From assembly GCA_024228935.1 (NCBI GenBank), contig JAAESX010000231.1, positions 32,172 to 56,171 of the forward strand: a stretch of 24,000 nucleotides of DNA. The letters are read 5' to 3'. The DNA comes from Pseudomonadota bacterium. GTDB taxonomy: Bacteria > Myxococcota_A > UBA796 > CAJQPC01. The notes below the pieces were generated by a model. That model saw only the letters and a list, made by a program, of their open reading frames with translations, was not told the origin of the DNA and did no database searches. This document shows, piece after piece, positions 5,974 to 23,736 of this stretch. A program made the translations under genes and the position numbers. Positions within the stretch are counted from its first letter, which is position 1, and each line of letters opens with the position of its first letter.

Positions 5974-7655
5974 GTGCCCTCCAGGACGCCGATGACCCAG
6001 TGCTCGCCGACCACTTCGCGGGGGTCCACGCCCTCGTCGTCGATGAACAGCGACGTGCCCAGGCGCGCGATGTAGCTGCCGTCGGGGAAGTCGAGCGCCT
6101 CGTGCGGCCAGACGGCCGACTGCCGCGTCGCCGTGTCGCTCTGCCACAGGCTCTCGAGCGCCGCGTCGATGTCCTCGGTGACCGTCAGCGAGGTCGCCGC
6201 GCCGGTCGCCAGAGGCTCGTCGAGGACGTACCAGGCGCCGCCCGAGCGCACGACGAGCTGCTCGATCTCCGCGCCGAGCGTGTTCGAGGCCTGCCCTCCG
6301 GTGAACTCCAGGCGCTCGCGGCGGGTCCCCTCACTGATGAGGACCTGGCGGATCGGCGCGCGGATCGGGACCAGGTCGCCGGAGACGACGCGGCCGCCAT
6401 CCCAGCTCGACTCGTAGCGGAAGTCCCAGTCCGGGCTGATGGGGAAGTGCCAGGTCCCGGGCTCGGGTCTCAGGCCCTTGCCTGGGGACAGGCCGAAGAA
6501 GATCTGCCGGACCGCATGGGTCGCCGCGGTGTGGTTCCGCTGGTCCAGCATCGTGATGCTGTAGCCGGCGGTCTGGACGCCCAGGCCGTTGTGGCTCAGC
6601 CCGTAGCCGACCATCAGGAGGGTCGAGCCGACGGCCAGGACGGGCGTCGTCACCAGCATCATCGACGGCCGCTTCAGGAGCTTCACGGCGAAGGCGTTCA
6701 GGGGCCCGAGCACCATCGCGACGCAGAACATCAGGAGCGCATACGCCCCACGGGGAAGCTGCTCGACGCCGGGGATCTCAGGCGCAGCTCCGCCGGTCTG
6801 GTAGGTGCCGCGAGGCAGGCGCTGGCTGATCTCGCTGCGGAACGAGGGCTGCACGATCGACTGGATTGTCAGCGGCTGCGCGGCCTCCTCGGGGCTGGCC
6901 ACGGAGAGCTGGCCCATGCCCATCGCCCAGGTGTTGATGCCCGGGAGCAGGCCCGCGTCGAGCCAGGGCTCCCAGGCGAAGCGGTCCTCCATCCACTCGG
7001 CGAAGACCGGCGCCGAGTGGACGTCTGCGGTGTCGCCCACGAGCACGACGGCGCCGCCCAGTCGGACCCATCCGGCGAGCCCTTCGAGCTGGTCTGCGCT
7101 GGGCATGCCTTCGGTGACGTCGACGATGACGAGGCCGAGCGACGTGTAGGCCCCGGGGTCCCGAGGCAGGTGGTCGAACGCGGCGGTCCCGGTCGCGTTG
7201 ACGTCCGAGAGGCTCAGCCGGTCGCGCCAGGTGTGCTCTTCCTCGAAGTCGTAGGCGGTCTTCGAGGCGAGCAGGACCGACCCCCGGTAGTCCGTGCCGA
7301 GCTCCGAGGGTCCCAGGGGAGACAGGGTGGTCAGCCACCGGCCCTCGTCCGTCACGGACATCGAGTGGCCCGCCACGTGTGGCATGAAGCTCGGGAGCAC
7401 GACCTCGAACTCGCGTCGCTCGCCGGGCTCGAGCTCGAGCACGCGCTCGGTGTTGCTCTGGTAGCCGTACGTCTCCGTGAACGTCAGCTCGATCTGCCGG
7501 TCTTCCTGGCTGGTGTTCTCGACCACGACCTGGACCGGGAAGTACCCGCGGTCCAGCCGCTCGGGCCAGGCGTACGTCGCCTCGACATGGATGCCGGACT
7601 TGGTGTCCGACTGGGTCGAGGCCGCCATCGCGGCACCCAGCAACAGCGCGGTCAT
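5970..7655 (-). CDS. Hypothetical membrane protein (561 aa): short signal-like N-terminus, about 300-aa exported domain, central TM hairpin, about 200-aa C-terminal domain; possible DUF4350/GldG-like segment
   Basis: Track ORF with good G/C at third positions. MTALLLGAAMAAS leader. A beta-sandwich-like stretch GYFPVQVVVENTSQEDRQIELTF. LGLVIVDVTEGMPSADQLEGLAGWVRLGGAVVLVGD resembles the spacing motif of DUF4350 / ABC-auxiliary (GldG) proteins (from memory). TM pair AYALLMFCVAMVLGPLNAFAV and MMLVTTPVLAVGSTLLMVGYGL. ATGA overlaps at both ends. Confidence 0.7.
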
Positions 7656-8674
7656 GCGACCTCGGGCGGGAGGGCCTCGGCGAGCTCGCTCACGGCGTCC
7701 AGGACAGCCGCGGCCACGGCCGGACCGTCGACGCCGTCGAGGCGGCCTCGGTAGTCGACGACGATCCGGTGGCCCAGCGCGTGGGGAGCGACCGCGTTGA
7801 CGTCGTCGAAGCCGACGTTGGGGCGGCCGGCCAGCAGGGCGTGGGCCCGGGCGGCCTCGGCGATGCCGATGGCGGCGCGGGGGCTGGCTCCGTACCGGAC
7901 GGAGCTCCGCACGATGTCGGGGGCGCCGATGCCATCGGGGTGCGTGGCGTCCACGATGCGGGCCGCGTAGCTGGCGACGGCCTTGGGCAGGAAGATGCGG
8001 TCGACGAGGCCGAACAGCTCGGTCAGGCGGGCGTGGTCGCTGACGGCGTGGGCCTCGGGGGGCTTGCCGCGTCGGCGGTCACGCAGCAGCGTCGTGAGCG
8101 TGTCGGCGCCCACCCGGTGGACGGACAGCTTGAAGAGGAAGCGGTCGAGCTGGGCCTCGGGCAGGGGGAACGTGCCCTCGAGCTCGATGGGGTTCTGCGT
8201 GGCCAGGACCCAGAAGGGGTCGGGCAGCTCGTGCGTCGTTCCGAGGACGGTGACGCTTCGCTCCTGCATGGCCTCGAGCAGGGCCGACTGGGTGCGAGGC
8301 GAGGCGCGGTTGATCTCGTCCGCCAGCACCAGGTTGCCGAAGACGGGGCCCTTGTGGAACACGAAGCGGCGCTGGCCGTCCTGCTCCTCGAGCACCTGGC
8401 CGCCCGTGATGTCGCCGGGCAGCAGGTCCGGGGTGAACTGGATGCGGGCGAAGTCGAGCCCCAGCAGGCCGGCGAGGCCCTTGACCAGCTCGGTCTTGCC
8501 GAGGCCGGGCAGGCCCTCGAGCAGCACGTGACCGCGGGCGAGCGCCGCGACGACGGTCAGGCGGACGAGCTGTTCCTGGCCGAGCAGGCGCTGGTTCAGC
8601 CCGTCGAGGAGGCCCTGTGCGAGCGCTTGTCCGCGCGCGACGTCGTCGGGGGAGAGGAGGTCCGAGGTGCTCAT
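7652..8674 (-). CDS. MoxR-family AAA+ ATPase
   Basis: Walker A EGLPGLGKT, Walker B LVLADEINRASPRTQSALLEAMQE, then VLATQNPIE..GTFPLPEAQLDRF and a C-terminal YGASPRA lid. True start is ATG 8674 (MSTSDLL), overlapping the upstream TGA (8671-8673). The 751-aa track ORF is an over-extension. Confidence 0.93.
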   Translation of the reverse strand: MSTSDLLSPDDVARGQALAQGLLDGLNQRLLGQEQLVRLTVVAALARGHVLLEGLPGLGKTELVKGLAGLLGLDFARIQFTPDLLPGDITGGQVLEEQDGQRRFVFHKGPVFGNLVLADEINRASPRTQSALLEAMQERSVTVLGTTHELPDPFWVLATQNPIELEGTFPLPEAQLDRFLFKLSVHRVGADTLTTLLRDRRRGKPPEAHAVSDHARLTELFGLVDRIFLPKAVASYAARIVDATHPDGIGAPDIVRSSVRYGASPRAAIGIAEAARAHALLAGRPNVGFDDVNAVAPHALGHRIVVDYRGRLDGVDGPAVAAAVLDAVSELAEALPPEVA

Positions 8675-9951
8675 TCGGTGTCGTCCGCTGCGAAGAAGGT
8701 GGACACGGCGTCCCGGTGTTCGGGGGCCAGGTCGCGGTGCCAGGTGGCGTCGCCCGCGGACATCGAGGTGGCCTCGGCGCCGGCGAACTGGCGGGTGGGG
8801 TCGACCTCGGCGTCCGCGAAGGCCTCGCCCAGGAGCATCGTGTGCTCCAGGTCGAGCTCGGCGCCGGGGGGCAGGATGGTCGGCTGGAACAGGGCGCTGC
8901 GGTCTTCGGCCTCGTCGCCGAAGGTCAGGTCCGCCGTGCCCGGTCCGCGCGTTATGCCGCCCTGTCCGGGGTCGCCGCTGCCAGCCAGGCTGAGCGCGAC
9001 GTCGCACTCGCTGGGGTTGTCGCAGGTGCCCTCGCCCTCGATGAGCTCGGCGCTCTCGAGGCGGACGCGGCCCTGGTCGATGGCCTGCTGGATGGCGTCG
9101 CCCAGCGCCTGCATCTGCTCGGCGGAGAGCTCGGACATCTGGGCCTGACCGGCCTCGCCGCGTGGCATGTCCTTCAGCTTCTCGGCCAGCTCGGGGGGCA
9201 GGTCCAGGCTGAAGCCCACCTCCTGGAGTGCGTCGAGCGCCTGCTGCATCGCCTTCTCGGGCGGGGCCTGGCCGTCGCGAGCGCGGGCCATTGCGTCCTC
9301 GGCGCGCTTGGCGGCGTCGTCCAGGTCCTCGGCCATCCGCCCCATGCGGTCCTCGGTGGCGTCGAGCGCCTCGAGCTGCGCCTCGGTGGCCTCGGTGGCC
9401 TTCTCCAGGTCCCGGATGTTCTCCTCGATCGCCTCGACCTCGGCCTCGTCCAGCTCGGCGACCTCGTCCAGGGCCTCGAGCTGCTCGTCCAGGTGCTCGA
9501 TGGTGGCCTCTGGGATGGCCGGCGCGGGCGGGGTCGGCGGGGCCGAGACCGGGATCAGGAAGGCGACGGCCAGGAACCCGGCGCCGGGGAGCGGCCAGGT
9601 CCAGGGCAGCGACAGGGTGGGCGCGGCGACCGAGGCGGGGACGGGCCAGCGTGGGTCCGGCTTCTCCAGCGCGGTCAGCACATCGCCGCGTCCGCCTCCG
9701 GCCCGGTCGAGCCAGGCGGCGGCGGTGGCGTCCGTGATGAAGCGGGCGCGCGCGACGACTAGCGCGGTCAGCGGCACGACGGCCAGCGGGATGAGGGCGG
9801 GCCACCAGGCGTCTCTCAGCCACAGTCGGAACACCAGGACGGCCGTCCCGCTCAGGAACAGGGCGACGGCGGCGTGCCGGAGTGCGGCGCCACCGAAAGC
9901 AGCCCACGCAACCCGTCGGCGGATGGCCGTGATGCGCTCGGCGATGCTCAC
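8671..9951 (-). CDS. Hypothetical membrane protein (426 aa): N-terminal TM segments plus a long hyper-acidic coiled-coil-like region; possibly DUF4175-like
   Basis: Track ORF; the start codon is GTG (9951-9949) with AGGA about 9 nt upstream. TM-like segments ALRHAAVALFLSGTAVLVF, WWPALIPLAVVPLTALVVA and GAGFLAVAFLIPV. Then EATIEHLDEQLEALDEVAELDEAEVEAIEENIRDLEKATEATEAQLEALDATEDRM... The C-terminal LAPEHRDAVSTFF resembles a P.eYr..v..YF tail I associate (from memory, unverified) with DUF4175-type proteins next to MoxR/DUF58. Confidence 0.65.
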   Translation of the reverse strand: MSIAERITAIRRRVAWAAFGGAALRHAAVALFLSGTAVLVFRLWLRDAWWPALIPLAVVPLTALVVARARFITDATAAAWLDRAGGGRGDVLTALEKPDPRWPVPASVAAPTLSLPWTWPLPGAGFLAVAFLIPVSAPPTPPAPAIPEATIEHLDEQLEALDEVAELDEAEVEAIEENIRDLEKATEATEAQLEALDATEDRMGRMAEDLDDAAKRAEDAMARARDGQAPPEKAMQQALDALQEVGFSLDLPPELAEKLKDMPRGEAGQAQMSELSAEQMQALGDAIQQAIDQGRVRLESAELIEGEGTCDNPSECDVALSLAGSGDPGQGGITRGPGTADLTFGDEAEDRSALFQPTILPPGAELDLEHTMLLGEAFADAEVDPTRQFAGAEATSMSAGDATWHRDLAPEHRDAVSTFFAADDTE

Positions 9952-10028: not shown

Positions 10029-11315
10029 TCAGTGCAACGTCGGCACCCACTCCATGTAGCCCAGCGCGGCGCCGATCTCGGTGTTGAGGCGCCACTCGAG
10101 GGTACCGTCCGGGGAGACCTTCTCGAGCTGTCCGCCCGTGCTCCACGTGACCAACCGAGCGCCGTCGGGGAGCCTGGCCACGTTGCCCAGGGCGTAGTTG
10201 AAGAGCTCGGGCTCGGTCCGGTAGGTGTCGACCTCCTCGGCCGTCCCGCCCTCGGTGTCGAGCGTGTACTCGACCACGCGGCTGTCCAGGTCGTCGGTCG
10301 TGCCGTTGTCGAAGACCAGCAGGCTGTCGCCGTCCAGATCGAACTGGTGCTGTTCGAGCGTGGTGCGGCGCTCCGCCTCGCCGACCAGCACGAGCGTGCC
10401 GTGCTCGCCGATGGCCCACTGCTCCTCGCCGGTCTGGGCATCGACGTGCACCACCGTGTTCAGGTTTCGAATCGACAGCGTGTATGCGTCGAGCTCCTCG
10501 CTGTAGTCGACCGCATTGGCGTGCGTGTAGTTCCGCAACATCTCGGGTGTCTTGGCCAGCTCCTCGGTCCAGGGCCGGTCGTCCCAGCTCGTCCAGATGG
10601 TCTCGAGGTCATCGCCGTGGACCTCGACGATGGAGTCGCCGGTCACCAGTCGGCCCTCGATCTCGCGCTTGTCGCTGACGATGGCGGCGTAGCCGTCGGG
10701 CAGGAGCGCGAAGTCGTGATGGAAGCCAGGCACCTGGATCGTGTGGATCGAGGTCTGCTCCCAGTCGACCTCGATGATCTCGGAGACCCGTCCCTCGGCC
10801 TCGATGTCGTTGGTCGAGGTGCCGAAGACGACCCCGCTGCCGTCCGGGAGGAGCCAGGCGCGCACGACCAGGATGTCGTCGCGGGCGTCCTTGAACCACC
10901 AGACCGGCGTGCCTTCGTGGTCGAGGATGAGCGGCCCCGAGGCGGCGCTGACGAACGTGCCGATGATGAACCCGCTGTCCAGCGGCTCGCCGAAGGTCTC
11001 GACGTCCATCTCCGGGATGTCGGTGGGCACGTTGCCCGTGCTGATGACGCCGCTCTGCGTCCGGCCGTCGTCGTGCTGGACCGTGTAGCCGTAGCTGCGC
11101 TGGGGGCCGAGCCCGACCACGAGCGCCGTGCCATCGCCCTCGAACTCCTGCACGAGCGCGCCGTCGAGGCGGATCTCCACCGTCGCCGGGCCCTCGTCCC
11201 AGGTCAGGCGCGCGACCGTGGGGATCGACTCGGCGAGCTTGACGTGGACGGGCAGATCGCCGAGCGCGGTGGGGTCGGCGCAGGCCAGGAGGAGAAGCAC
11301 TCCCCTTCCTATCAC
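10029..11315 (-). CDS. Arylsulfotransferase (ASST) family beta-propeller lipoprotein
   Basis: Motifs FHHDFALLPDG, YTHANAVDYSEELDAYTLSIRNLNTVVHVDAQTGEEQWAIGEHG and EQHQFDLDGDSLLVFDNG match the ASST family pattern as I recall it. I prefer the GTG at 11315-11313, giving (M)IGRGVLLLLAC with lipobox LLAC, and overlapping the upstream TGA (11312-11314) as GTGA. The track start at 11435 adds Arg-rich nonsense. Confidence 0.72.
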   Translation of the reverse strand: MIGRGVLLLLACADPTALGDLPVHVKLAESIPTVARLTWDEGPATVEIRLDGALVQEFEGDGTALVVGLGPQRSYGYTVQHDDGRTQSGVISTGNVPTDIPEMDVETFGEPLDSGFIIGTFVSAASGPLILDHEGTPVWWFKDARDDILVVRAWLLPDGSGVVFGTSTNDIEAEGRVSEIIEVDWEQTSIHTIQVPGFHHDFALLPDGYAAIVSDKREIEGRLVTGDSIVEVHGDDLETIWTSWDDRPWTEELAKTPEMLRNYTHANAVDYSEELDAYTLSIRNLNTVVHVDAQTGEEQWAIGEHGTLVLVGEAERRTTLEQHQFDLDGDSLLVFDNGTTDDLDSRVVEYTLDTEGGTAEEVDTYRTEPELFNYALGNVARLPDGARLVTWSTGGQLEKVSPDGTLEWRLNTEIGAALGYMEWVPTLH

Positions 11316-12541
11316 TCCGGGGCGGAGGAATCCTCTCTCGTCGGCTGGGCGAGCACCTCGTCGGCGAGCTCGACCAGAGCGCCCTGGAACGACGGGGCCC
11401 AGCGCGGGTCGACGAGGCGTGCCTTCACGAGCCACACGTCGGCGGCTTCGGCGTCGCGGTGGACCTCGGGGTCGCGACCAGGGGCGAGGTACGGCGAGGT
11501 CAGGGCGAGCTCGTGCAGGGCCTGGCGGATGACCAGCGCGTCGATGCCATGGCGCACGTGGACTCGGACCAGGACGGGGACGAAGCGGTCCGGATCGGAC
11601 TCGACGATGGCCTCGAGCAGGGCCCGGTTCGGGACCGTGACGGCGCGTCCGTCGTCCCCGACCAGCTCGACGTAGCGGAGCCCGACGGTGCGGACGACGC
11701 CGGCCAGGTGTCGGCCATCAGCGTGCAGCTCGACCCGCTGGTTCTTCACGAGCCGGTGCTCGACGACCAGCACGACGCCGGCGATGACATCCCGCAGGAC
11801 GTCCCTCGCGGTCCAGCCCACGGCGAGCGCCGCCCCGATGAAGACGTAGGCGGGAGCTGGGTTCACGCCGTGCGGCAGGATCATCAACCCACCCACCAGC
11901 ACGGCGGCCAGGGTCGACAGGCGCAGCACGACGACCAGGCCGCGGAGCCCGAGCGGGATGAGGCCGCGCGAGGGGAGCGTGGCCAGGGGGCCGTTCTCGA
12001 TGGCTCGGGTGATCAGGACGAGGAGGATCGCCAAGAGGCCCGACAGGAGGGCTCGACGGAGCGAGGGCTCCGGGGTGACGGGCAGCAGGCGGTGGTGCTC
12101 GGGCTGCGGCGCGGGCGCTGGCTCGGAGGCGTCGGGCTGGGGGGCCGGGGGCGAGGGCTCGGTCGGGTCGGCCGCCGGCTCGGCGTCCGGGTCGGCGGGC
12201 GTGCCCTCGGGGGACTCCGCCTGTCCGGGCTCGGTGGGGGCCTCCGGACCGAACAGGGTCCCGTCGACATACGGCGCCCCCTCCACCACGATGCGTCCGG
12301 ACAGCGGGTCGATGACGTCGACGCCGCGCTGGAAGCCTTCGGCCGGCTGGAACCCGTCGGGCCAGGGTCCGAGGACGTGCTCGCGCGCGCCGTCGTCCTC
12401 CGGTGGCTGCCATGGCTCGGGCGGGGCTGTGTCCTCGGGGGGAGCCGTGTCCTCGGGCGGGGCCGTGTCGACCGCCTCGTCGGGCTCGACGGGCGTGACC
12501 TCGACGGGGTCCTGGGCCAGGGCGAGAGCGATCCAGATCAT
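11312..12541 (-). CDS. MscS-family mechanosensitive channel-like protein with a Pro/Glu/Asp-rich exported N-terminal extension
   Basis: Core FIGAALAVGWTARDVLRDVIAGVVLVVEHRLVKNQRVEL..GRHLAGVVRTVGLRYVELVGDDGRAVTVPNRALL matches the MscS TM3 plus beta-domain pattern, preceded by three TM segments. Start is ATG 12541 (MIWIALALAQDP), overlapping the upstream TGA (12538-12540). The track ORF (to 13201) is over-extended. Confidence 0.75.
   Translation of the reverse strand: MIWIALALAQDPVEVTPVEPDEAVDTAPPEDTAPPEDTAPPEPWQPPEDDGAREHVLGPWPDGFQPAEGFQRGVDVIDPLSGRIVVEGAPYVDGTLFGPEAPTEPGQAESPEGTPADPDAEPAADPTEPSPPAPQPDASEPAPAPQPEHHRLLPVTPEPSLRRALLSGLLAILLVLITRAIENGPLATLPSRGLIPLGLRGLVVVLRLSTLAAVLVGGLMILPHGVNPAPAYVFIGAALAVGWTARDVLRDVIAGVVLVVEHRLVKNQRVELHADGRHLAGVVRTVGLRYVELVGDDGRAVTVPNRALLEAIVESDPDRFVPVLVRVHVRHGIDALVIRQALHELALTSPYLAPGRDPEVHRDAEAADVWLVKARLVDPRWAPSFQGALVELADEVLAQPTREDSSAPE
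12416..12469 (-). repeat. 3 x 18-nt imperfect tandem repeat encoding (DTAPPE)x3 within the MscS-like gene
   Basis: Plus strand reads ctcgggcggggctgtgtc / ctcggggggagccgtgtc / ctcgggcggggccgtgtc. The protein reads DTAPPEDTAPPEDTAPPE. Confidence 0.9.
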
Positions 12542-15500
12542 CCGTCCAGCCCCCTCTCCCGAAGCACGACGCGCAGCGCCGCGGCCAGGTGGCCGGCCAG
12601 GGCGTAGCGGCCTCGCCGAGTGCGGCGCACCAGGCCCAGGTGGGCGAGCCGCGACAGGTCCGCGCCCGAGTGGTCGGGGTCCCGGCGGAACTGACGCGCA
12701 TGGAGCGAGACGTCGATGCGACCCTGCCGCGCCAGCTGGCGAAGGGTGAGCAGGGACTCGTCGTCCAGCGCTCGCACCGAGGCCAGCGGCGCCGCTGGTA
12801 CGTCCCCGAGCACGAGCACGTCGTTCTGCGTGTCGACCTCGATCACCGAGGCCATCCACAGCCGCAGGGCATCGGACAGCAGACCACCCGTCGCCTCGAA
12901 CAGGTCCTCGAAGTAGTGCTCCTCGATGCGTTCGTCGGCGCCCCCGCGCGAGGTCGCGCGCCGCAGCCACTGGCCGAGATGGGCGTCGGTCTCGGCGAAG
13001 CGCAGGCCGTACCCGCTCATCCGGTGCCGCCCCAGGAGCGCCCGGCGCAGCGAATCGGGGTCCAGCGGGCCGAGCTCCAGTCGGTGCGGGAACACGTCGC
13101 GCATGCTGACCACGCGGTCGGCGTAGGCCCAGACGCTGGGGTCGATCGACAGCACGAACGCGTTGTTCCCGTCGTCGTCGATGACCTCTCGGGCGAAGCA
13201 CCGCAGCGCCTCGAACCCGCCCGGCTCGATGGAGAACAGCCAGTGCGCGCCTTCGACGACGACGACCACGCCGCCGGTGGCCTTGGCCTCGATGCGCTCG
13301 ATCTCGGCCAGGTCCCGGACCGGCTCGGTCAGCACGTGGCGAGCGACCTTGGCGGGCAGGCCCCGGACCAGCGCGTTGACCGCGGCGCCGCGCGTGTCTT
13401 CCCCGCTTCCCAGGATGGCGACCGAGCGGCTGCGACCCGCGCCCTCACCGACCAGGACCCGTCGCAAGGCCTCGAGCTCGAGCTCCCGGCCCTCCAACAG
13501 GTCGGTGACCTCGAGCGCGGCGTCGCTGAACAGCCGCCGGAAGACGGCGGGCAGCTCGATGGCCGGCCGGACCTCGGCGAAGGTCTCTGGTCCGACCTCG
13601 GCGGTCGCGGTCTCGGGGAGCCCCAGGGACCGGCGGATGGTCGCGTAGCCCTCGGGGCCCATCGCGCGCTGGACGGCCTCGCCCAGGTGGTCCCTCAGGT
13701 CGGTCAGTGACTCGGCGCCGCCGGTGATGAGGCGCCGGCGTCGGGCGAGCTTGCCGCGGTTCAGTCGGCGGCGGACCTCGTCCCACTGCCCTCCGACGAG
13801 CAGTCCGTGAAGGGCCTCGATGTGTCGGAAGACGGCGTCCTGGATGCGGCCGGCGGCGTCGGCGCCCAGCTCGCTGTTCGCCGCGTGCAGCTGGCCGAGT
13901 CGTCCCGCCAGGCGCTGGAGGGTCGCCAGGAGCGTCTCCCGCAGGATCTCTCGAGCGGCGACGGGCACCACATCGGCCTGGGCCAGCACGGTCAGCTCGG
14001 TGTGGGTCAGGTCCAGGTTGAACTTGAGGCTGCGCTCGAGCTCCTCCATCCCTCGCGCGATGACCTCGACCTGCTCGAGCAGCTCCTCGACCAGCAGCGA
14101 CAGGTCCCGGCCCACCTCGGCGTCCAGGTAGGTGGCGGCGAGCTCGCGGAAGGCCACGTCCTCGATGCGCGGCGCAGCGGGCAGGCGTCGTCCCGACAGG
14201 CCGGGCGGATTCACGGCGACGTCGAACCGGTCGGTCAGTCCGTCGACGCTCCCGGCCAGCGCGTTGCGTAGGGGCTCGATGGCGGTCTCGGTGCGCAGAC
14301 CGGCGCGAACGGTCTCAGCGACCGAGAGCGCGTCGTCGACCACGTGCAGGATGGCGGTGCAGGCCGTCCGGATCCGGGCCTCGAGCTCGTCGGGCCCCAC
14401 GTCGCTGGCGATGTCTTCGTCGAGCTGGGTGATGGCCGCGTCCAGGGCCTCGACGATGCGCCCGAGCTGCAGCACGACCTTGCCGGACAGGTCGCGGGCG
14501 AGCGTGTCCGAGTGCGCGTCGACGGCGTCACGGGCGCTGTCCGCCAGCCGCACGAGCTGGAGCTCCATCGCCATGCCGGCGGCGACACCACGGGTCAGCA
14601 GGTGGGCGTGTCCAAGGCCCTCGAGGAGCTCGCGGATGGCCTCCTCGCGCGCCTGGTAGACCTTGCTGAACCGGTAGTGGCGAGAGCGCAGCTCGGGCGT
14701 ACCGGCGATGGCCAGCGCCCGGTTGAACTGCTTGTAGGGACGACCCAGCGCGGCCGCGGCCACCCGGACGGTCTCGTCGGCCAGCCGGTCGACCTCGCGC
14801 TGGGCGAGCTGGAACTCCTCCTCGAGCTCCCCGCGGAGCGAAGCGAGCAGCGGGTCCCACGAGCCCGGCTCGAAGTCGTCGTGCGCGAGCAGCTCGTCCT
14901 CGCTCTTCCGCAGGACCTCGAACACGTTGCGCGTGCGGGCCAGGAGGTGTCGCTCGGACAGGGCCATGAGGCCGGCCAGCTCGCCCAGGTGCAGGGGCGC
15001 GTGGCCGGACAGCGTGAACCGGGCCAGTGGGCGCAGCTCGACGATGCGCATGGGCTCGCCGAGGCCGATGGCCCGAGCCGCTCGAACCAGGCCCTTGTTG
15101 AGTCCGAGCCAGGGGCCGTCACCCGGCCGGGCCGCGACCAGGCGGTCCTCCAACGGGACCTCGGTCGCCGAGGGGAGCGCGTCGACGAGCCGGTCGATGG
15201 CCCGGAGCATCTCCTGCAGCACGTCGGCCTCGCGCCGGAAGTCGACGCTCGCGGCCCGGTCCAGGATGTGGTCCTCCCAGGTCCGAGCGAGCTGGGCCCG
15301 GCTGTCCCGCACGGCCCGCGCCATGTCCTCGCGGGTCGTGTTGGGGTCGCAGGCCTTCACCTGGAGTCGGCGGTGGTAGCGCAGGAACTCCCGCCGGAGC
15401 TGGCCCAGGAACTGCTGTGCGGTCTGACGGCGCGCGCTCGTGGTGCTCGACCGGACCTCGCGCGTCAGGGTCTGGAGGTCACCCTTCAGGTTGCGGCTGG

Positions 15501-17019
15501 TCTTCAGGAGCTTCCGCCAGGTGACGTCCGGGGGCTCGCCCCAGGGGTCGAACTGCGTGTGGCCCGGCTCGGGCAGCCACTCGGGGAGACGGGTGTCCGG
15601 CTCGGGGTCGTCCTCGGCGAGCGTGAACGCCTCGTCCAGGGTCGGGTCGTCGTCCTGAGGGACCTCCTTGGCGATGCCGAGCGCGACCTTCAGCAGGACG
15701 GGGCCGACCATCTCGTTCAGCGCGATGCCTGCGACGGCCATCGTCGCCAGGTCGGCGCCGACCCCACCGAAGCCGGCGATGACGGTCGCCATGGCCAGCG
15801 CGATGCCGGCCTGGGCGCCGAAGCCCAGGAAGCCCCACTTCGCCAGGATCTCGGGTCCCTGACCGACCCGCGTGCCGGCGGCGGTCCCGAGCCACAGCGC
15901 GAGCATGCGGCCGGCGAACAGGACCCCGGCGAACGCGGCGCTCGCCACCAGCCCCTGCAGGTCGAGGTGGGCGCCGGCCAGGAAGAAGAACACGACGTAG
16001 ATCGGCATCGACAGCCGATCGACCGCGGACTTGAGCTGATCGTGTGCGGCCGGCCGGGTGAAGTTCCGGACGACGAAGCCGGCGAACAGGAACGCCAGCA
16101 ACGCATCCACGCCGACCTGGGCGGCCAGGTAGGTGATGCCGAAGCACAGCCCGGTGAGGATCAGCAGGAGCTCGTTGCCGATCCATCGGGTGACCAGCGC
16201 GATGCCGCCGCCCATCGCGCCGCCGAGCACGACCGCGCCGCCGATCTTGATGAGCAGCTCGAGCGCCAGCCCCTGCTCGCTCGGCGGCGCACCGAAGCGA
16301 GGTCCCAGCACGCTGATCGCGGCCGCGAACAGCACGACGACGACCACGTTGTTCAGGACCGAGACACCCAGGACCGTGTCGGTGACCGGCCCTCGCGAGC
16401 GCGTCTCGTGGACGATGGCGATGCTCGCAGCGGGGCTCATCGCGGCGCCGACGACAGCCAGGAGGACCGCCGCGCCGATGCGCACGTCCTGGGGCTGGTC
16501 GACCAGGAAGGGCAGCGCGAACCCATCGATCGGGCCGGAGATCAGCCAGACCAGGCCGCCCAGGATCGAGAGAAGGGCCACGTACTGGAGCGTCAGGACC
16601 GAGCTGAAGAGCCGGGCTCCGCGCCGCAGCGTGCCCAGCTCGAGCGCGCCGCCGGCCGACAGCGCGATGAGCGCCACGGCCAGGTCGTTGAAGAGCGACA
16701 GCTCCTCGACCGTCTCGTGGTCGAGCATCGTCATCCAGTGCGGCGTGTGCAGCACCTCGTGCGCGTGGTGGCCGAGCAGGATGCCGGTGACGAGGTACGC
16801 CGTGATGTGCGGCAGCTTGATGGTCTCGGCGAGCTCGCCAAGGGTGTAGGCGGCCAGGATGATGAAGCCGAACGTCGCCATCGCGACCGGGTTCAGGAGC
16901 CCCTCGTGCGGCGTGTGGACCGCTTGCAGGAAGAGCATCAGGACGAACAGGAGCCCGACGATGAGCGCCTTGGTCAGCCCGTCGCCGAGCGTGATCTTCT
17001 TGTGGCCGCCGCCCGACAT
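12538..17019 (-). CDS. Giant (1,493 aa) fusion: CPA2-type cation/proton-antiporter-like membrane domain + long helical cytoplasmic region + C-terminal degenerate STAND/AAA_16-like NTPase with winged helix
   Basis: Start is ATG 17019-17017 (MSGGGHKKITLGDG), whose A is shared with the trkH TGA. Residues about 1-450 are Na+/H+ exchanger-like (IKLPHITAYLVTGILLG...). The cytoplasmic part starts near nt 15660. NTPase-like block GRELELEALRRVLVGEGAGRSRSVAILGSGEDTRG (13387-13500), VVVVVEGAHWLF (13231-13275) and LELGPLDPDSL. The wHTH-like C-terminus is LTLRQLARQGRIDVS...LGLVRRTRRGRYAL. The 1,921-aa track ORF is an in-frame read-through into trkH. Confidence 0.8.
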   Translation of the reverse strand: MSGGGHKKITLGDGLTKALIVGLLFVLMLFLQAVHTPHEGLLNPVAMATFGFIILAAYTLGELAETIKLPHITAYLVTGILLGHHAHEVLHTPHWMTMLDHETVEELSLFNDLAVALIALSAGGALELGTLRRGARLFSSVLTLQYVALLSILGGLVWLISGPIDGFALPFLVDQPQDVRIGAAVLLAVVGAAMSPAASIAIVHETRSRGPVTDTVLGVSVLNNVVVVVLFAAAISVLGPRFGAPPSEQGLALELLIKIGGAVVLGGAMGGGIALVTRWIGNELLLILTGLCFGITYLAAQVGVDALLAFLFAGFVVRNFTRPAAHDQLKSAVDRLSMPIYVVFFFLAGAHLDLQGLVASAAFAGVLFAGRMLALWLGTAAGTRVGQGPEILAKWGFLGFGAQAGIALAMATVIAGFGGVGADLATMAVAGIALNEMVGPVLLKVALGIAKEVPQDDDPTLDEAFTLAEDDPEPDTRLPEWLPEPGHTQFDPWGEPPDVTWRKLLKTSRNLKGDLQTLTREVRSSTTSARRQTAQQFLGQLRREFLRYHRRLQVKACDPNTTREDMARAVRDSRAQLARTWEDHILDRAASVDFRREADVLQEMLRAIDRLVDALPSATEVPLEDRLVAARPGDGPWLGLNKGLVRAARAIGLGEPMRIVELRPLARFTLSGHAPLHLGELAGLMALSERHLLARTRNVFEVLRKSEDELLAHDDFEPGSWDPLLASLRGELEEEFQLAQREVDRLADETVRVAAAALGRPYKQFNRALAIAGTPELRSRHYRFSKVYQAREEAIRELLEGLGHAHLLTRGVAAGMAMELQLVRLADSARDAVDAHSDTLARDLSGKVVLQLGRIVEALDAAITQLDEDIASDVGPDELEARIRTACTAILHVVDDALSVAETVRAGLRTETAIEPLRNALAGSVDGLTDRFDVAVNPPGLSGRRLPAAPRIEDVAFRELAATYLDAEVGRDLSLLVEELLEQVEVIARGMEELERSLKFNLDLTHTELTVLAQADVVPVAAREILRETLLATLQRLAGRLGQLHAANSELGADAAGRIQDAVFRHIEALHGLLVGGQWDEVRRRLNRGKLARRRRLITGGAESLTDLRDHLGEAVQRAMGPEGYATIRRSLGLPETATAEVGPETFAEVRPAIELPAVFRRLFSDAALEVTDLLEGRELELEALRRVLVGEGAGRSRSVAILGSGEDTRGAAVNALVRGLPAKVARHVLTEPVRDLAEIERIEAKATGGVVVVVEGAHWLFSIEPGGFEALRCFAREVIDDDGNNAFVLSIDPSVWAYADRVVSMRDVFPHRLELGPLDPDSLRRALLGRHRMSGYGLRFAETDAHLGQWLRRATSRGGADERIEEHYFEDLFEATGGLLSDALRLWMASVIEVDTQNDVLVLGDVPAAPLASVRALDDESLLTLRQLARQGRIDVSLHARQFRRDPDHSGADLSRLAHLGLVRRTRRGRYALAGHLAAALRVVLRERGLDG

Positions 17020-18506
17020 CAGCGCCTCCAGAACCCTGGCGTGAGGAGCGCCAGGATGGTGAAGAACTCGAGGCGACCGAGCAGCATGAGCCCGGAGAGG
17101 ACGACCTTGGTCGGGCCGGTGAAGAAGCCGAAGTGGTCCGTCGGACCGACCAGGCCGAAGCCGGGACCGACGTTGCTGACGCAGGCGAGTGACGCCATGA
17201 TCGAGGTGGTCCCGTCGGTCTGCTCGACCAGCGCAACCCAGACGGCGCCGATGGCCACGGTCAGCACGTACAGGCCCATGAAGGCCAGGATGCCGGTCAG
17301 CTGCTGGCTGGAGACGGACGAGCGACCCACGCGCACCGGCTCGACCAGGTGGGGGCGGAACGAGCGCTTGAGCTCGGCCACGGCGGCCTTCACGAGGATG
17401 ATGACCCGGATGAGCTTCATGCCGCCCGCGGTGGAGCCCGAGCAGCCTCCCGTGAAGTAGAGGCCGAGCAGGAGCATGCGCGTCACGCTCGGCCAGGTCT
17501 CGAAGTCGTGCGTCCCGAAGCCTGTCGTCGACATGACCGAGGCGGTCTGGAAGCTGGCGTAGCGCAGCGCGTTGCCGATGCCGTACTGGCTGGCGAGCGC
17601 CAAGGCGCAGACGCCCGTCACGGCGGCCAGGATGGCGACGTAGACCCGGGTCTGGGTGTCCTTCAGCATCACGGTCGGGCCGCGCTTGATGGCCTCGGGG
17701 ATGAGCCCGAAGTTCAGCCCTGCGATGACCATGAACACCAGGATGATCATCTCGACGACCACGTTGTCGAAGTCCGCGACCGAGCCATTCATGGTGGAGA
17801 AGCCGCCGGTCCCGAGCGTGCTGAACGCGTGGGTGATGGCGTCGAATGGGGACAGCCCGGCGAGCCAGAGCGCGCCGGCCTCGAACAGCGTGAAGCCCAG
17901 GTAGACCTTCCACAGCACGCTCGCGCTCTCGCGGATGCGCGGCGAGAGGCCCTTGGTCTTGGGGCCGGGGGCCTCGCCGCGGAACAGGTGCTTGCCACCG
18001 ACGCCGAGCGCGGGGAAGACGGCGACGAAGAGGACGACGATGCCCATCCCGCCCAGCCAGTGACTGAGCATCCGCCAGAAGTGCAGGGCCGGGTTCAGCC
18101 TCTCCTCGATCTCGGGGAGGATGGTCGCGCCGGTCGTGGTGAACCCGCTGGTCGACTCGAAGATGGCATCGGCCAGCGTGAAGTCGGCCCCGATGACGAA
18201 CGGCACGCCGCCGGCCACGCAGAGCGCGACCCAGGAGATGGTGACGACGAGCAAGGCCTCGCGGCGGTCGAGGTCCTCGAGCGAGGCCTCCCGCCCGACC
18301 CACAGCGACATGCCAGCGAAGGCGCCGACCAGGGCTGCGCTCCCCGCCATCTGCAGGGCGCCCTCGGTCGAGCCCATGGCGACGCCCACCAGGCCGGACA
18401 CCGCCATCGCCAACGCGACACCCACCATCAACAGGCCGACGGGCCGTGCCACCTGGGGGACACGGCTCCGCAGCTCGCCGAAGCGCCAGCGCGCGCGGCG
18501 ACTCAT
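17019..18506 (-). CDS. trkH: TrkH-type K+ uptake membrane subunit
   Basis: Pore-loop style motifs SGFTTTGAT, FSTLGTGGFST, MSTTGFGT and GGCSGSTAGGMK. Start is ATG 18506 (MSRRARWRFGE), 16 nt after the trkA stop. The track start at 18617 lies inside trkA. Confidence 0.9.
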   Translation of the reverse strand: MSRRARWRFGELRSRVPQVARPVGLLMVGVALAMAVSGLVGVAMGSTEGALQMAGSAALVGAFAGMSLWVGREASLEDLDRREALLVVTISWVALCVAGGVPFVIGADFTLADAIFESTSGFTTTGATILPEIEERLNPALHFWRMLSHWLGGMGIVVLFVAVFPALGVGGKHLFRGEAPGPKTKGLSPRIRESASVLWKVYLGFTLFEAGALWLAGLSPFDAITHAFSTLGTGGFSTMNGSVADFDNVVVEMIILVFMVIAGLNFGLIPEAIKRGPTVMLKDTQTRVYVAILAAVTGVCALALASQYGIGNALRYASFQTASVMSTTGFGTHDFETWPSVTRMLLLGLYFTGGCSGSTAGGMKLIRVIILVKAAVAELKRSFRPHLVEPVRVGRSSVSSQQLTGILAFMGLYVLTVAIGAVWVALVEQTDGTTSIMASLACVSNVGPGFGLVGPTDHFGFFTGPTKVVLSGLMLLGRLEFFTILALLTPGFWRR

Positions 18507-18522
18507 CGGGTGGGGCCCGGGC

Positions 18523-19866
18523 TCAGAGGACCCTCTTTCGGAACAGGCGCTCGACGGTCGGTCGGGCGGCTGCGGTGGCGATGACCACGACGACGTCGCC
18601 GCCATGGACCTGGTCATTGCCGCGCGGCAGCCGGACGGTGCCCTGGCTGACGATGCAGGCCAGCAGCGCGCCGCGAGGAAGGTTCAGGCGCTTCAGCGGC
18701 GTGTCCACGATGCGGCTGCCATCTCGGGCCACCAGCTCGAGGACCTCGGCCTGGCCGTGCTCGAGCAGGGTCAGCGACTGGACCTCGGACTGCCGGACGT
18801 ACCGCAGGATGTGCTCGCTCGCGACGGTGCGGGGTGACAGCACGATGTCCACACCCAGCTGGCGGTAGATGTCCGCGTAGTCGGGCCGCTGGGCGATGCT
18901 CGCGGCCCGGTCCACGCCGATGCGCTTGGCCAGGAGCGCAGCCATCAGGTTGACCTCGTCGTCCTGGGTCACCGCGGCGAACAGGTCGTAGTTCCCGACC
19001 TGCTCGTCCTCGAGCAGGTGCACGTCGGTGCCGTCGCCGTGGATGACGGTCACGTCGACCAGCTCCTCGGCCAGCTCCTCGGCGGTCTTCCGGTCTCGCT
19101 CGATGAGCATGACCTCGACATCCGATGCGGTCAGCAGGCGAGCCAGCGCCGAGCCGATGACGCCACCGCCGACGATGCAGACGCGAGCGGCTTCCCGGCC
19201 TCCGCCGAACACGTCCTCGACCTCGTCCATGTTCCCGGCGTGCCCGAGCAGGTAGATGCGGTCCCCGGCCAGCAGCACGTCGGCTCCACCCGGCACGAAC
19301 AGCTCGCCCTCACGCACCACCGCGCCGATGAGGGTGTCCGCGGGGAGGCTCAGGTTGGCGAGCGACTTGTGAAGCATCTTGCTGTCGCCGGACAGCTCGA
19401 CCTGGATCATCTCGACGCGGTTGCCGGCCAGCCCCAGGACCTCGAGGGCGCCTCGGCTGCGGGCGATCTTGGCGATCTCCTGGGCCACCAGGATGCGCGG
19501 GTTCATCACGACGTCGATGCCCAGCAGGCCGTACTGGATGCCGATGTCGTCGGCGCTGTAGTGCCCGTGGTGGACGCGAGCGATCGACCGCTTGGCGCCC
19601 AGATTCTTGCCGGCCAGCGCGGCCACCAGGTTGATCTCGTCATCGTTGGTGACGGCGACCAGCAGCTCGGCCCGGTCGACCTGGGCCTCCTTGAGTACGC
19701 GCGGACTGCTGCCGTACCCGACGAGCGTGCCGACATCCTGCTCGTCCTCGATGTCCTCGAGCGACGCGCCATCGCAGTCGATCGCGACGACGTCGTGTCC
19801 ATCGTGCTCGAGCTCCGAGACGACGTGGCGACCGACCTGTCCCATTCCGACGACGACGACGTACAC
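18523..19866 (-). CDS. trkA: TrkA K+ uptake regulatory protein (tandem RCK/KTN domains)
   Basis: 447 aa. Two Rossmann motifs, VVVGMGQVGRHV and CIVGGGVIGSALA, each followed by a TrkA_C-like segment. The start codon is GTG (19866-19864), 1 nt after the upstream TAG. Confidence 0.92.
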   Translation of the reverse strand: MYVVVVGMGQVGRHVVSELEHDGHDVVAIDCDGASLEDIEDEQDVGTLVGYGSSPRVLKEAQVDRAELLVAVTNDDEINLVAALAGKNLGAKRSIARVHHGHYSADDIGIQYGLLGIDVVMNPRILVAQEIAKIARSRGALEVLGLAGNRVEMIQVELSGDSKMLHKSLANLSLPADTLIGAVVREGELFVPGGADVLLAGDRIYLLGHAGNMDEVEDVFGGGREAARVCIVGGGVIGSALARLLTASDVEVMLIERDRKTAEELAEELVDVTVIHGDGTDVHLLEDEQVGNYDLFAAVTQDDEVNLMAALLAKRIGVDRAASIAQRPDYADIYRQLGVDIVLSPRTVASEHILRYVRQSEVQSLTLLEHGQAEVLELVARDGSRIVDTPLKRLNLPRGALLACIVSQGTVRLPRGNDQVHGGDVVVVIATAAARPTVERLFRKRVL

Positions 19867-19867
19867 G

Positions 19868-21142
19868 CTAGCTCCCTTCCGCGGGGGTGATGTCTGCGGG
19901 GCCCAGGTCCCCGGCCGAGTCTCCGGGGATCTCGGCCCGGATGTCGCCCGCGTCGATGAGCAGCCCCTTCAGGAGCCGCGCCGACCAGACCTCGTTCACG
20001 AGGACGCTCGCGAGGATGCACGTCATCACCACGCCCATCAGCGGCTCGTGGGGGTAGACGATGGCCAGGTTCAGGGCCATCGCCACCGCGACCTCGCCCT
20101 GTCCGAGCATGCCGCGACCGACGTCCCGACGGATGCTCGAGCCGGCCGCCAGGGCCGAGAACCAGCCGCTCGCCAGCCGGGCGCCGCCACGGACGAACGC
20201 GTACAGCACCGCGAACAACAGCAACAGGACGGGTTCGGCCTGCCAGGTGGCTCCGGCGAAGATCAGCAGCACGATGTACATCGGGCCGCGGCTCTTCTCG
20301 AGTACGTCGAGCAGGGCCTTGCTGCTGGCGTCCCGCGCGTTGAACAGCATGACGAAGCCGAGCACCAGGTTCACGAGCAGCGGGGACAGCTCGAGGTAGT
20401 GGGCGGCGCCCGACGCGAACACGATGATGCCGACGAGCGACAGGAACTGCCGGTCGGCGTCCTCCTCGCTGCGCAGGAAGAAGCGGAAAAGGCCGCCCAG
20501 CAGGATGCCCAGCAGGATGCTCACGCCGTACCACTCGGGGTGCGTGATGGGCGTGTCCCGCCACGGGTTCGGCGAGGGGTCGCGGAACCAGCAGAACAGG
20601 GCCCCGAAGGCGGCGATGGCCACGAACTCGTCGACCCGGACGGCCTGCGTGAGCGTCCGGGTGGTGTCACCCTCGGCCGAGAATCGGCTCTTGACGAGCT
20701 CGAGCACGGCGGGGGAGGTGGCCATGGCCGCACAGCCCAGCGCGAGCGCGGCCAGCATGCGCTCGGCGGTCTCGACCTGGGGGACCCAGGGCAGCCCCAG
20801 CCCGAGCCAGGTCGCCCCGAAGACGACGCCGAACGTCCCGATGCTGCCGAAGATGGACAGCATGACCGCCCCACGCGACTCCTCGGACAGGAGCCTTCGC
20901 GGCGACAGCGACGCGCCGTACAACAACCCGACCCAGCCGATGGCCAAGGACATCAGAGGCGAGAGTTGTCGAACCGTCTCGGCGTCGATCAGGTCCAGAG
21001 CAGCGGGTCCGACGAGCACCCCCAGCAGCATGTACTCGCTGCCGGTGGTGAAGAGGAAGCGGCCCTGCAACCACTTGACGACGAAGTGGAACAACAGGAA
21101 GGCGGCCGCGGCGACCGCCAGAAGGGCGAGAGCTGTCGTCAT
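19868..21142 (-). CDS. CPA2-family cation/proton antiporter (membrane domain only, no RCK domain)
   Basis: Track ORF of 424 aa, multi-TM. Na+/H+-exchanger-like blocks ATSPAVLELV...AVRVDEFVAIAAF (acidic pair DE at 20627-20632) and MLGQGEVAVAMAL. Confidence 0.8.
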   Translation of the reverse strand: MTTALALLAVAAAAFLLFHFVVKWLQGRFLFTTGSEYMLLGVLVGPAALDLIDAETVRQLSPLMSLAIGWVGLLYGASLSPRRLLSEESRGAVMLSIFGSIGTFGVVFGATWLGLGLPWVPQVETAERMLAALALGCAAMATSPAVLELVKSRFSAEGDTTRTLTQAVRVDEFVAIAAFGALFCWFRDPSPNPWRDTPITHPEWYGVSILLGILLGGLFRFFLRSEEDADRQFLSLVGIIVFASGAAHYLELSPLLVNLVLGFVMLFNARDASSKALLDVLEKSRGPMYIVLLIFAGATWQAEPVLLLLFAVLYAFVRGGARLASGWFSALAAGSSIRRDVGRGMLGQGEVAVAMALNLAIVYPHEPLMGVVMTCILASVLVNEVWSARLLKGLLIDAGDIRAEIPGDSAGDLGPADITPAEGS

Positions 21143-21894: not shown

Positions 21895-22866
21895 TCAGCC
21901 GGCCGGGTCCACGTCCGAGGGCCAGTCGATGGCGGTCGAGGCGGTGTACCCCAGGACCTGGCGGGCCCGCGTGCCGTCGAGCACCGAGCAGTAGTGGAAG
22001 CGCCGCCGGTTCATGCCGTAGCTGAAGTCGTGGCCCCTCAGGCGACGTCGCGCCTTGTACCAGGTGCTCGCGACGCTCCCGGGGACGGGGAGCCCGACGC
22101 GGCCCCAGCGGCGGACGGCGGTGGCCAGCGGCAGGGTGTCCTTGCCGGGGATGTTGAACACGCCCTGGACGCCGAAGGCCTTGCCGGCGAGCTCGAGCGA
22201 CCGGACGCAGTCGTCGATCGAGAGCACGTTCATCATCGGGTCGAACCCGAGCGGACGCAGGCACACCGGCGAGTCGAGCCAGTCGAAGATCTGCGAGCCG
22301 GTGCCGGGACCGAGCACCTCGGCACACCGCAGGACCGCGATCTCGAGCGAGGACAGGCCCATTCGCGTGCAGGCGGTCAGGTCGGCCTCGACGCGGTCCC
22401 GGATCCACTGTGGCGAGCCCGGGCTCATGTTCAGCGGGTGGTTCTCCTGGATCAGGATCGGGAGGTCGGCCTGCACCTGGTAGACGTCGGCGTCGCTCTT
22501 GAAGACCAGTCGCCGGATGCTGGGATGACGCTCGCCCAGGTCCAGGAGCGTCCGCAGCGCGTCCACGTTCTGGGCCCGCACCCGGCCGCCGGTGTGGCGG
22601 GCGTCCCGGTGCATGGCCGTGTGGATCACGACCTCGACCCCGAGCTCCTTGGCGATGCCGAACAGCAGCTCGTGGGCTCGCCGGCTTCGACCGAGGTCGA
22701 CCTTCCTGTAGACGAGCTTCTCGTGCTCGAAGGGGAGCCGCTCGTCGGGGTAGGCGACGGCGAGGACGCTCTCGACGTCTTCGTCGGCCAGCAGGCGGCG
22801 GACGAGCCGCTCGCCGATGGGGGTCGAGGCGCCCGTCACGAGGACACCTTGGATGCGCATCCTCAT
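21895..22866 (-). CDS. NAD(P)-binding epimerase/dehydratase-like (extended SDR fold), apparently atypical: no YxxxK
   Basis: MRMRIQGVLVTGASTPIGERLVRRLL is a Rossmann TGxxxxIG motif, followed by VVIHTA. ATG 22866 overlaps the upstream TGA (22863-22865). Where SPYxxSK is expected, the sequence reads GSPQWIRDRVEAD. The 617-aa track ORF is over-extended. Confidence 0.78.
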   Translation of the reverse strand: MRMRIQGVLVTGASTPIGERLVRRLLADEDVESVLAVAYPDERLPFEHEKLVYRKVDLGRSRRAHELLFGIAKELGVEVVIHTAMHRDARHTGGRVRAQNVDALRTLLDLGERHPSIRRLVFKSDADVYQVQADLPILIQENHPLNMSPGSPQWIRDRVEADLTACTRMGLSSLEIAVLRCAEVLGPGTGSQIFDWLDSPVCLRPLGFDPMMNVLSIDDCVRSLELAGKAFGVQGVFNIPGKDTLPLATAVRRWGRVGLPVPGSVASTWYKARRRLRGHDFSYGMNRRRFHYCSVLDGTRARQVLGYTASTAIDWPSDVDPAG

Positions 22867-23705: not shown

Positions 23706-23736
23706 GGCCCGGATCTATCACGCTACCCTGCAGGTC
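23706..23736. promoter_or_regulatory. 31-bp divergent intergenic region between the acyltransferase gene and the lipoprotein gene
   Basis: cccggatctatcacgctaccctgcaggtc lies between ATG 23705 (minus) and ATG 23737 (plus). It is too short to hold two full promoters. Confidence 0.3.

Follow-up and report, generated by a model that had tools for sequence, protein, structure and literature searches.

Trk uptake, cation/proton exchange and mechanosensitive release are usually studied apart from one another. Exchangers of the CPA superfamily act as dimers, and in the characterised members the carboxylates of the TD and ND motifs form the cation/proton site and are required; to our knowledge, the Asp of the ND/DD motif is needed for transport in every characterised exchanger of the superfamily. 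KefC and KefB, the glutathione-gated potassium efflux systems, combine a CPA2 membrane domain with an RCK/KTN domain, and SOS1/NHX7, NHE6 and NHE9 of the CPA1 group join an exchanger to a very large helical cytosolic regulator. We are not aware of any TrkAH or MscS system described with an accessory protein that joins an exchanger fold to AAA+, and full-text searches of the literature found none. Here we describe a window, that is, the whole stretch of 24,000 nucleotides analysed (contig JAAESX010000231.1 of assembly GCA_024228935.1, positions 32,172 to 56,171 of the forward strand, from a Pseudomonadota bacterium), in which Trk, exchanger-fold and MscS-like genes are brought together in one operon with a large conserved protein of 1,493 residues. 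This protein resembles KefC/KefB in its membrane domain of the exchanger superfamily, its large cytoplasmic regulatory region and its potassium context, and it shares with SOS1/NHX7, NHE6 and NHE9 the design of an exchanger carrying a very large helical cytosolic regulator.

We tentatively propose, as a reading to which we give slightly less than an even chance, that the 1,493-residue protein is anchored in the membrane as a non-catalytic subunit that regulates or scaffolds a potassium/turgor module. The proposal is based on the predicted folds, the missing catalytic residues, the purifying constraint on the protein, the coupling and conservation of the operon, and the occurrence of the cytoplasmic module alone beside MscS-like genes. 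Judging from its sequence, the protein probably acts neither as an active pump of the Kef type nor as a nucleotide switch. As far as could be found, the domain architecture and the five-gene module are undescribed, the kinds of components being known; full-text searches for an exchanger joined to a helical arm and an AAA+/winged-helix module returned no literature.

The gene and the ion site of its membrane domain

The gene (12538..17019, − strand) can be translated without a stop from the ATG at 17019 to the TGA at 12538. Its stop-to-stop frame reaches 18303, the extra stretch lying beneath trkH, which is read in another frame; the TGA of trkH overlaps the ATG of the gene (cgcTGATGtcg), and an N-terminus of the MSGGGH type is common to the homologues. 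For these three reasons, the ATG at 17019 is taken as the start. The G+C content of the window is about 70%, and therefore the length of the open reading frame (ORF) says little by itself and conservation decides. NCBI holds the identical sequence as a hypothetical protein from a metagenome-assembled genome (MAG) named 'Proteobacteria bacterium', and the query is covered to 97-100% by more than 130 colinear homologues, each about 1,480-1,510 residues long, at identities from 84% down to 29%, in an alignment that is nearly gap-free over its full length except for the linker at residues 451-500. A single ORF of 1,480-1,510 residues was also found in 80 species-level genomes. A scan of one genome per GTDB species gave 90 relatives, all of them in MAGs, and nearly all labelled as Myxococcota, Polyangiales, Sandaracinaceae or 'delta proteobacterium'. 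Two larger database entries were considered as possible further fusions and rejected as artefacts: in P0087 (2,038 residues, apparently fused to TrkH) the end of trkH is read out of frame on a contig of 3x coverage (L004), and in P0112 (2,083 residues, apparently fused to MscS) the winged-helix region is frameshifted in an error-prone assembly (L005/L075).

Residues 1-450 (15670..17019, − strand) make up a polytopic membrane domain of the CPA superfamily. Pfam Na_H_Exchanger (PF00999) covers residues 57-430 (E 1.7e-21; 77 bits against a cut-off of 26.2) and was the only family above threshold in a Pfam scan of the protein, and hydrophobic segments are confined to residues 9-450. An earlier note on this DNA had assigned the domain to the CPA2 type. 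The exchanger domain itself stands, but the CPA2 label finds no support, since the family profile matched only CPA1 proteins among PDB sequences in this region (SOS1/NHX7 at 3.5e-6 and NHE6 at 1.7e-4) and matches to the NCBIfam models of both CPA1 and CPA2 all fell far under their cut-offs. The CPA2 model TIGR00932, which has a cut-off of 238, did not match the query at all and scored 28.8 bits in the relative P0265; on sequence, CPA2 membership is not established. No TrkA_N or TrkA_C domain was found by Pfam at E ≤ 1, and no RCK structure appeared when the family profile was searched against PDB sequences; the RCK units of this locus lie in trkA, two genes upstream of the 1,493-residue gene.

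The residues expected at the ion site are those that the query has lost. AMSPAA (residues 193-198; 16426..16443, − strand) is the counterpart of the 'ATDP' unwound-helix motif of exchangers, with Ser in place of the ion-site Asp: in the HMMER alignment, the family's ATSPAA lies opposite ATDPVA of SOS1 and ATDPVT of NHE6, and Ser (Ser195 in the query) occupies the position of the TD-motif Asp in 114 of 115 family sequences. Similarly, N223-N224 (16348..16353, − strand) is the counterpart of the 'ND/DD' ion-binding motif; here the family's VLKD lies opposite LMND of SOS1 and VLND of NHE6, and the query reads VLNN, the Asp being replaced by Asn224. The family divides cleanly at this position: 53 sequences, the query and every one of its closest relatives among them, have NN, 51 have KD and about 8 have another residue followed by D. 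As AMSPAA and VLNN align to the TD and ND motifs of exchangers, both carboxylates of the cation/proton site are absent in the query (S195 and N223-N224), and the relatives that keep an Asp read KD and TS where a functional exchanger has an ND/DD carboxylate and a TD Asp. Ten residues upstream of NN/KD, residue 214 (around 16378-16380, − strand) is Asp in the NN clade and Arg, Ser or Gln in the KD clade, a clean co-variation, which may reflect a charge that has moved within the ion pathway. In databases, the family goes by the names 'KefB' or 'cation:proton antiporter', and the latter name may mislead for the query lineage.

The helical arm and the C-terminal module

The membrane domain is followed by an acidic, Pro-rich, poorly conserved linker (residues 451-500; 15520..15669, − strand), which has the lowest conservation and the most gaps in the family alignment as well as a low pLDDT. 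Beyond it, residues 501-1135 (13615..15519, − strand) are predicted to form an all-alpha arm. The AlphaFold2 (AF2) model of residues 454-1180, built from an alignment of 95 sequences, has a pLDDT of 92.1 and a pTM of 0.81 and is nearly all helix; the helices are 51-87 residues long, and two short beta-hairpins are inserted. The arm had no Pfam match and no PDB sequence match, and in a Foldseek search of the PDB its best match was no better than E 0.2. It is nonetheless conserved, with 36% mean identity to the query, few indels and invariant Arg-rich motifs such as LRREFLRxHRR. Thus, in the model, this region of about 640 residues is a confidently predicted helical domain that has no known structural relative in the PDB and no Pfam family. 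An internal duplication of the arm is only suggested, as hhalign gave weak support (probability 45%, E 2e-4) for two tandem units.

For the C-terminal part (residues 1140-1493), AF2 gave a model with a pLDDT of 94.5 and a pTM of 0.90, in which a helical lid and then a winged helix come after a five-stranded alpha/beta base. The AAA+-type base (residues 1170-1316; 13072..13512, − strand) begins at a GRExE motif (LEGRELE); the lid (residues 1317-1405, boundaries approximate; 12805..13071, − strand) carries an invariant RH.MSGY motif, its invariant columns in the family alignment A1 being R192, H193, S196 and G197; and the winged helix-turn-helix (residues 1406-1493; 12541..12804, − strand) ends the protein. 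The best Foldseek matches of residues 1140-1493 were Hda, PAB2304, RuvB, CbbX and ORC1/Cdc6 (E 1e-6 to 1e-5, probability 1.0), and the order of base and then helical lid that marks the AAA+ fold was found with probability 1.0 to Hda, RuvB, ORC/Cdc6, CbbX and RFC. The ORC/Cdc6 structures 2v1u, 1fnn and 2qby matched at E 6e-6 to 2e-5 with TM-scores of 0.3-0.45 and no match at the sequence level. In profile searches, the winged helix matched the C-terminal helix-turn-helix of EutK (3i71) at 9.5e-6 and, weakly, MarR proteins. No STAND structure was among the top 50 Foldseek matches of the module, and neither Pfam nor the model detected C-terminal sensor repeats.

Pfam found no P-loop family in the query, and the matches of its relatives are marginal. 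In six representatives of the family, AAA_16 stayed below threshold (about 27 bits against 32.6, over profile positions 2-50 only), and in relatives nSTAND3 (22 against 27) and NB-ARC (18.5 against 23.5) fell short as well. The AAA_16 scores ranged from 23.8 to 29 bits over the fused relatives tested and the stand-alone relative P0237, and were 16.7 and 22.6 bits in two other stand-alone relatives. AAA_22 was just reached by motif-intact stand-alone relatives (27.2 and 27.8 bits against 27), in which nSTAND3, AAA_16 and ATPase_2 also matched, all below threshold. Judging from the predicted structure, the C-terminal module is better described as AAA+ of the kind seen in ORC/Cdc6, Hda and RuvB, with base, lid and winged helix, than as a STAND module.

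The nucleotide-binding motifs of this module are degenerate in the query. GSGEDTRGA (residues 1204-1212; 13384..13410, − strand) is a Walker A motif without its Lys, where relatives read GPDGVGKSA or GELGSGKTS, and VVVVVEGAHW (residues 1251-1260; 13240..13269, − strand) is the Walker B strand with E-G for E-D, where motif-intact relatives read VVLED; the stand-alone relative P0245 has both GELGSGKTS and VVLED. Among 164 exchanger-fused proteins, Walker A contains GK[ST] in 24, GK followed by another residue in 39, GR for GK in 17 and no lysine in 84, and the Walker B acid is absent in many of the GK[ST] members. P0084 is the one NN-clade protein of the first family set that has the Walker A Lys. 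A GxxxxGK[ST] Walker A together with an acidic Walker B, as expected of an AAA+ ATPase, is therefore not present in the query and is intact in a minority of its relatives; with the Lys missing and E-G in Walker B, a nucleotide switch is unlikely in the query. At the same time, the NN clade does not evolve more freely than the clade with Asp at the ND/DD position (xD): mean pairwise identity in the NN clade is 0.54 in the membrane domain, 0.41 in the arm and 0.47 in the AAA base, each at least as high as in the xD clade (0.41 for the AAA base). As conservation in the NN clade matches that in the xD clade, the AAA domain appears to be kept for a non-catalytic role rather than to be decaying.

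Much of what the earlier note had read from the letters is borne out by these results: the single uninterrupted ORF, the acidic linker, a long helical region in which it could name no motif, the absence of an RCK/KTN domain, and a module that sits at the extreme C-terminus with no repeats behind it. The C-terminal motifs that it quoted are likewise present in the translation. Its AAA_16/STAND layout survives in part, as a P-loop-type domain, a helical lid and a winged helix; the STAND assignment does not, since the folds lie nearest to classical AAA+ proteins and AAA_16 is absent in the query.

The operon and the stand-alone form of the module

Five co-directional genes, abutting or overlapping, form the operon: X, trkA, trkH, the 1,493-residue gene and an MscS-like gene. 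On the evidence of the TGATG and ATGA sequence overlaps at its two ends, the 1,493-residue gene is translationally coupled within it. The arrangement beside trkAH that the earlier note proposed to look for in relatives is indeed widespread. Among species-level loci with sufficient flanking DNA (67 upstream and 65 downstream), X, TrkA and TrkH precede the gene in 60 of 67, X and TrkA alone in 4 and X alone in 2, which places X upstream in 66 of 67. The MscS-like gene follows in 62 of 65 loci; directly downstream, it is the dominant conserved partner, and it was missing from the earlier note. A genome of candidate division KSB1 has the same five-gene order, and another lineage has a shorter one (X, the relative of the large gene, MscS-like). 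In the KSB1-type and short-order relatives, the membrane domain reads TSP and KD, and the GKT and ED motifs are intact. As these distant relatives keep them, KD and an active-looking ATPase are probably ancestral, and the NN and dead P-loop of the query derived.

The cytoplasmic part also occurs as a separate protein without an exchanger, which goes beyond what the earlier note had read. When a profile of residues 454-1493 was run against 1.84 billion representative proteins, 2,512 matched at E ≤ 1e-3, of which 497 reached E ≤ 1e-30. Among the top 150 matches, about 19 are proteins of 990-1,120 residues that align from their first 10-40 residues to the end and have no exchanger domain. In one context (L088), TrkA and TrkH are followed by a module of 1,001 residues and an MscS-like gene, with neither an exchanger domain nor X; in the other (L089/L090), a module of 1,051 residues is followed by an MscS-like gene, and there are no Trk genes. 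Thus X is absent in both distinct stand-alone contexts, whereas it is present in 66 of the 67 fused loci. A scan of metagenomes with the back-translated pattern RREFLRHHRR found only exchanger-fused or truncated loci. The pair of module and MscS-like gene is the most widely retained linkage, since it is kept in both stand-alone contexts read, and it is probably the core of the system.

Gene X (19868..21142, − strand), the first of the operon, encodes a divergent exchanger-fold paralogue of 424 residues. By hhalign, it is a full-length paralogue of the family's membrane domain (probability 99.4%, E 4e-21, 363 columns). Pfam gave no match for the X of the window, a polytopic membrane protein, and X orthologues in KSB1-type loci do match Na_H_Exchanger. 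At the position equivalent to ND/DD, X has D-E in the query clade; most other X sequences have G-D or S-D, and the one from a KSB1-type locus has N-Q. A strict complementarity of ion-site residues between X and the 1,493-residue protein was considered, and it fails across loci. The second gene, trkA (18523..19866, − strand), encodes two RCK units (two TrkA_N and two TrkA_C domains in Pfam; NCBIfam equivalog, 427 bits against 293). The third, trkH (17019..18617, − strand, start codon uncertain), matches Pfam TrkH at 1.3e-55 and the NCBIfam TrkH model at E 1.6e-95, under the curated cut-off. The fifth (11312..12541, − strand), whose ATG overlaps the upstream TGA (ATGA), encodes an MscS-like channel of 409 residues (Pfam MS_channel_2nd, 1e-7). 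This protein has a signal-peptide-like start and then about 150 low-complexity residues rich in Pro, Glu, Ala and Asp, which precede the transmembrane helices and the beta-domain; a periplasmic extension of this sort is unusual in an MscS homologue of small size.

Some further observations concern the neighbourhood. Loci L039, L052, L070 (the same as L007), L079, L084 and L086 read X, TrkA, large gene and MscS-like without trkH, and in this subgroup the P-loops tend to complete erosion (e.g., SLDRQAALA). Just downstream of the operon, positions 10029-11435 (− strand) encode an arylsulfotransferase-like protein (Pfam Arylsulfotrans, 1.4e-20). Further on, an ORF of 751 residues (7652-9907, − strand) has MoxR-type AAA_3 and AAA_lid_2 domains at residues 460-728 only; its N-terminal 430 residues have no Pfam match and are either a long extension or an over-extended ORF in DNA of high G+C. 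On the other side, three genes lie upstream of X in L001 (1182-3744) and L003 (1276-3821): one for an acyltransferase, one of the epimerase family and one of about 228 residues without a Pfam match. An epimerase-domain ORF lies at the matching place in the window (21895-23748, − strand), and synteny may stretch upstream of X.

Proposed function and comparison with known systems

If the 1,493-residue protein is a regulatory or scaffold subunit, its parts might work together as follows: the membrane domain would pair with X, as the superfamily is dimeric and X occurs, in the loci examined, only where the exchanger domain does; the arm would hold the AAA+/winged-helix module beneath the membrane; the module would touch the TrkA ring, the cytoplasmic part (cage) of the MscS-like channel, or both; and such contact would couple potassium uptake to solute release. 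Where relatives retain the GKT and ED motifs, the coupling might be set by ATP being bound or hydrolysed, and in the query lineage the module would be locked in a nucleotide-independent form. Several points weigh against this proposal. Contact with the MscS-like protein, TrkA or X is suggested by gene order only, and both database 'fusions' that might have backed it proved to be frameshift artefacts; the stand-alone evidence consists of two distinct contexts; Asp214 co-varies with NN and might stand in for the lost Asp; a Walker A with Arg for Lys might still permit weak nucleotide binding; and most relatives retain the ion-site Asp in a KD motif, so that ion transport may be a property of the family at large.

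The last of these points bears on the explanation that survives best among the others, namely that the protein is an active monovalent cation/proton transporter, for example one whose potassium efflux balances uptake by TrkAH, with the arm and AAA+ module as a new regulator replacing the RCK domain of Kef. The strong conservation of the Na_H_Exchanger fold, the potassium-transport operon, the Asp kept as KD by most relatives and the co-variation of Asp214 with NN are all consistent with transport, and exchangers with big cytosolic regulators do exist, SOS1 being the best PDB sequence match. As trkA adjoins the gene without trkH in 4 of the 67 loci, its RCK rings might even gate the protein in trans. 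However, NN stands at the ND/DD position in the query clade and Ser at the TD position in nearly the whole family, the supposed regulator has no nucleotide-binding lysine, and the same module occurs without any transporter domain. We therefore regard active transport by this protein as possible but doubtful. The cation-efflux device offered by the earlier note as one of its two readings is weakened by the loss of both ion-site carboxylates, and the nucleotide-switch-like output of the other is unlikely here, given the state of Walker A and Walker B.

The other form of that output, a membrane-tethered sensor in which the exchanger-like domain senses ions and the ORC/Cdc6-like AAA+ and winged helix bind DNA, seems improbable. 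The winged helix does resemble nucleic-acid-binding helix-turn-helix domains (EutK and, weakly, MarR), and the DNA-binding proteins ORC/Cdc6 and RuvB are among the closest folds. Nevertheless, the winged helix of AAA+ and STAND proteins is integral to the ATPase module and often makes no contact with DNA, and it is with a channel gene, not with a regulon, that the protein is constantly associated here. Still more improbable is a signalling or anti-phage NTPase of the STAND/AAA_16 type whose effector is the membrane domain. The GRExE motif, the sub-threshold AAA_16, nSTAND3 and NB-ARC matches of relatives and a weak PADLOC match to mad8 in P0245 are in its favour, but the PADLOC scan for defence systems found nothing in the query or its neighbours, sensor repeats and STAND structures are lacking among the matches described above, the P-loop is eroded in most members, and the setting is a stable housekeeping ion-transport operon across phyla rather than a variable defence island. 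Finally, even though the two larger 'fusions' of relatives did prove to be frameshift artefacts, the joining of two genes into this long ORF by an assembly or frameshift error is excluded with next to no residual doubt, because a single ORF of the same length, conserved down to 29% identity with scarcely any indels, is found in more than 130 independent assemblies and in the 80 species-level genomes.

A bolder version of the regulatory or scaffold proposal would make the arm, AAA+ base and winged helix an unrecognised class of cytoplasmic partner of MscS-family channels, with the fused form tying a heterodimer of X and the 1,493-residue protein, TrkAH and the MscS-like valve into a turgor/potassium supercomplex, and with an ATPase that has repeatedly decayed to a structural pseudo-enzyme; we put this forward as speculation that is unlikely to hold. 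Should the arm-AAA+ module indeed regulate the MscS-like channel, or link it with TrkAH, turgor control would have a new principle, and here would be a clear example of two folds, one of a transporter and one of an ATPase, that have both been turned to non-catalytic use. Relatives grade naturally from GKT/ED with KD to no Lys with NN, and this series is ready material for comparison.

Compared with the described systems, the protein shares its parts with several and its whole with none that could be found. It differs from KefC/KefB in having, instead of RCK/KTN, a cytoplasmic part of 1,040 residues made of the arm, AAA+ and winged helix, and in the absence of the ion-site carboxylates. It differs from SOS1 and NHE6, which carry TD and ND, in its MS and NN, and no part of the tails of SOS1/NHX7, NHE6 and NHE9 matches the arm. 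With STAND, AAA_16 and AAA_22 proteins (MalT-type, nSTAND), it has in common the sequence of NTPase, helical domain and winged helix, but the family has no C-terminal sensor repeats and the AAA_16 and nSTAND thresholds of Pfam are not reached. The order of GRExE, Walker A, Walker B, lid and winged helix is also that of Hda/DnaA, PAB2304 (an archaeal Walker-type ATPase from Pyrococcus, 2qen), RuvB and ORC1/Cdc6, to which TM-scores are only 0.3-0.45 and identities 11-18%. Unlike these proteins, the module described here is tethered to the membrane by an arm of 640 residues and is linked not to replication or repair but to ion-channel genes, with TrkAH and an MscS-family channel as its conserved operon partners.

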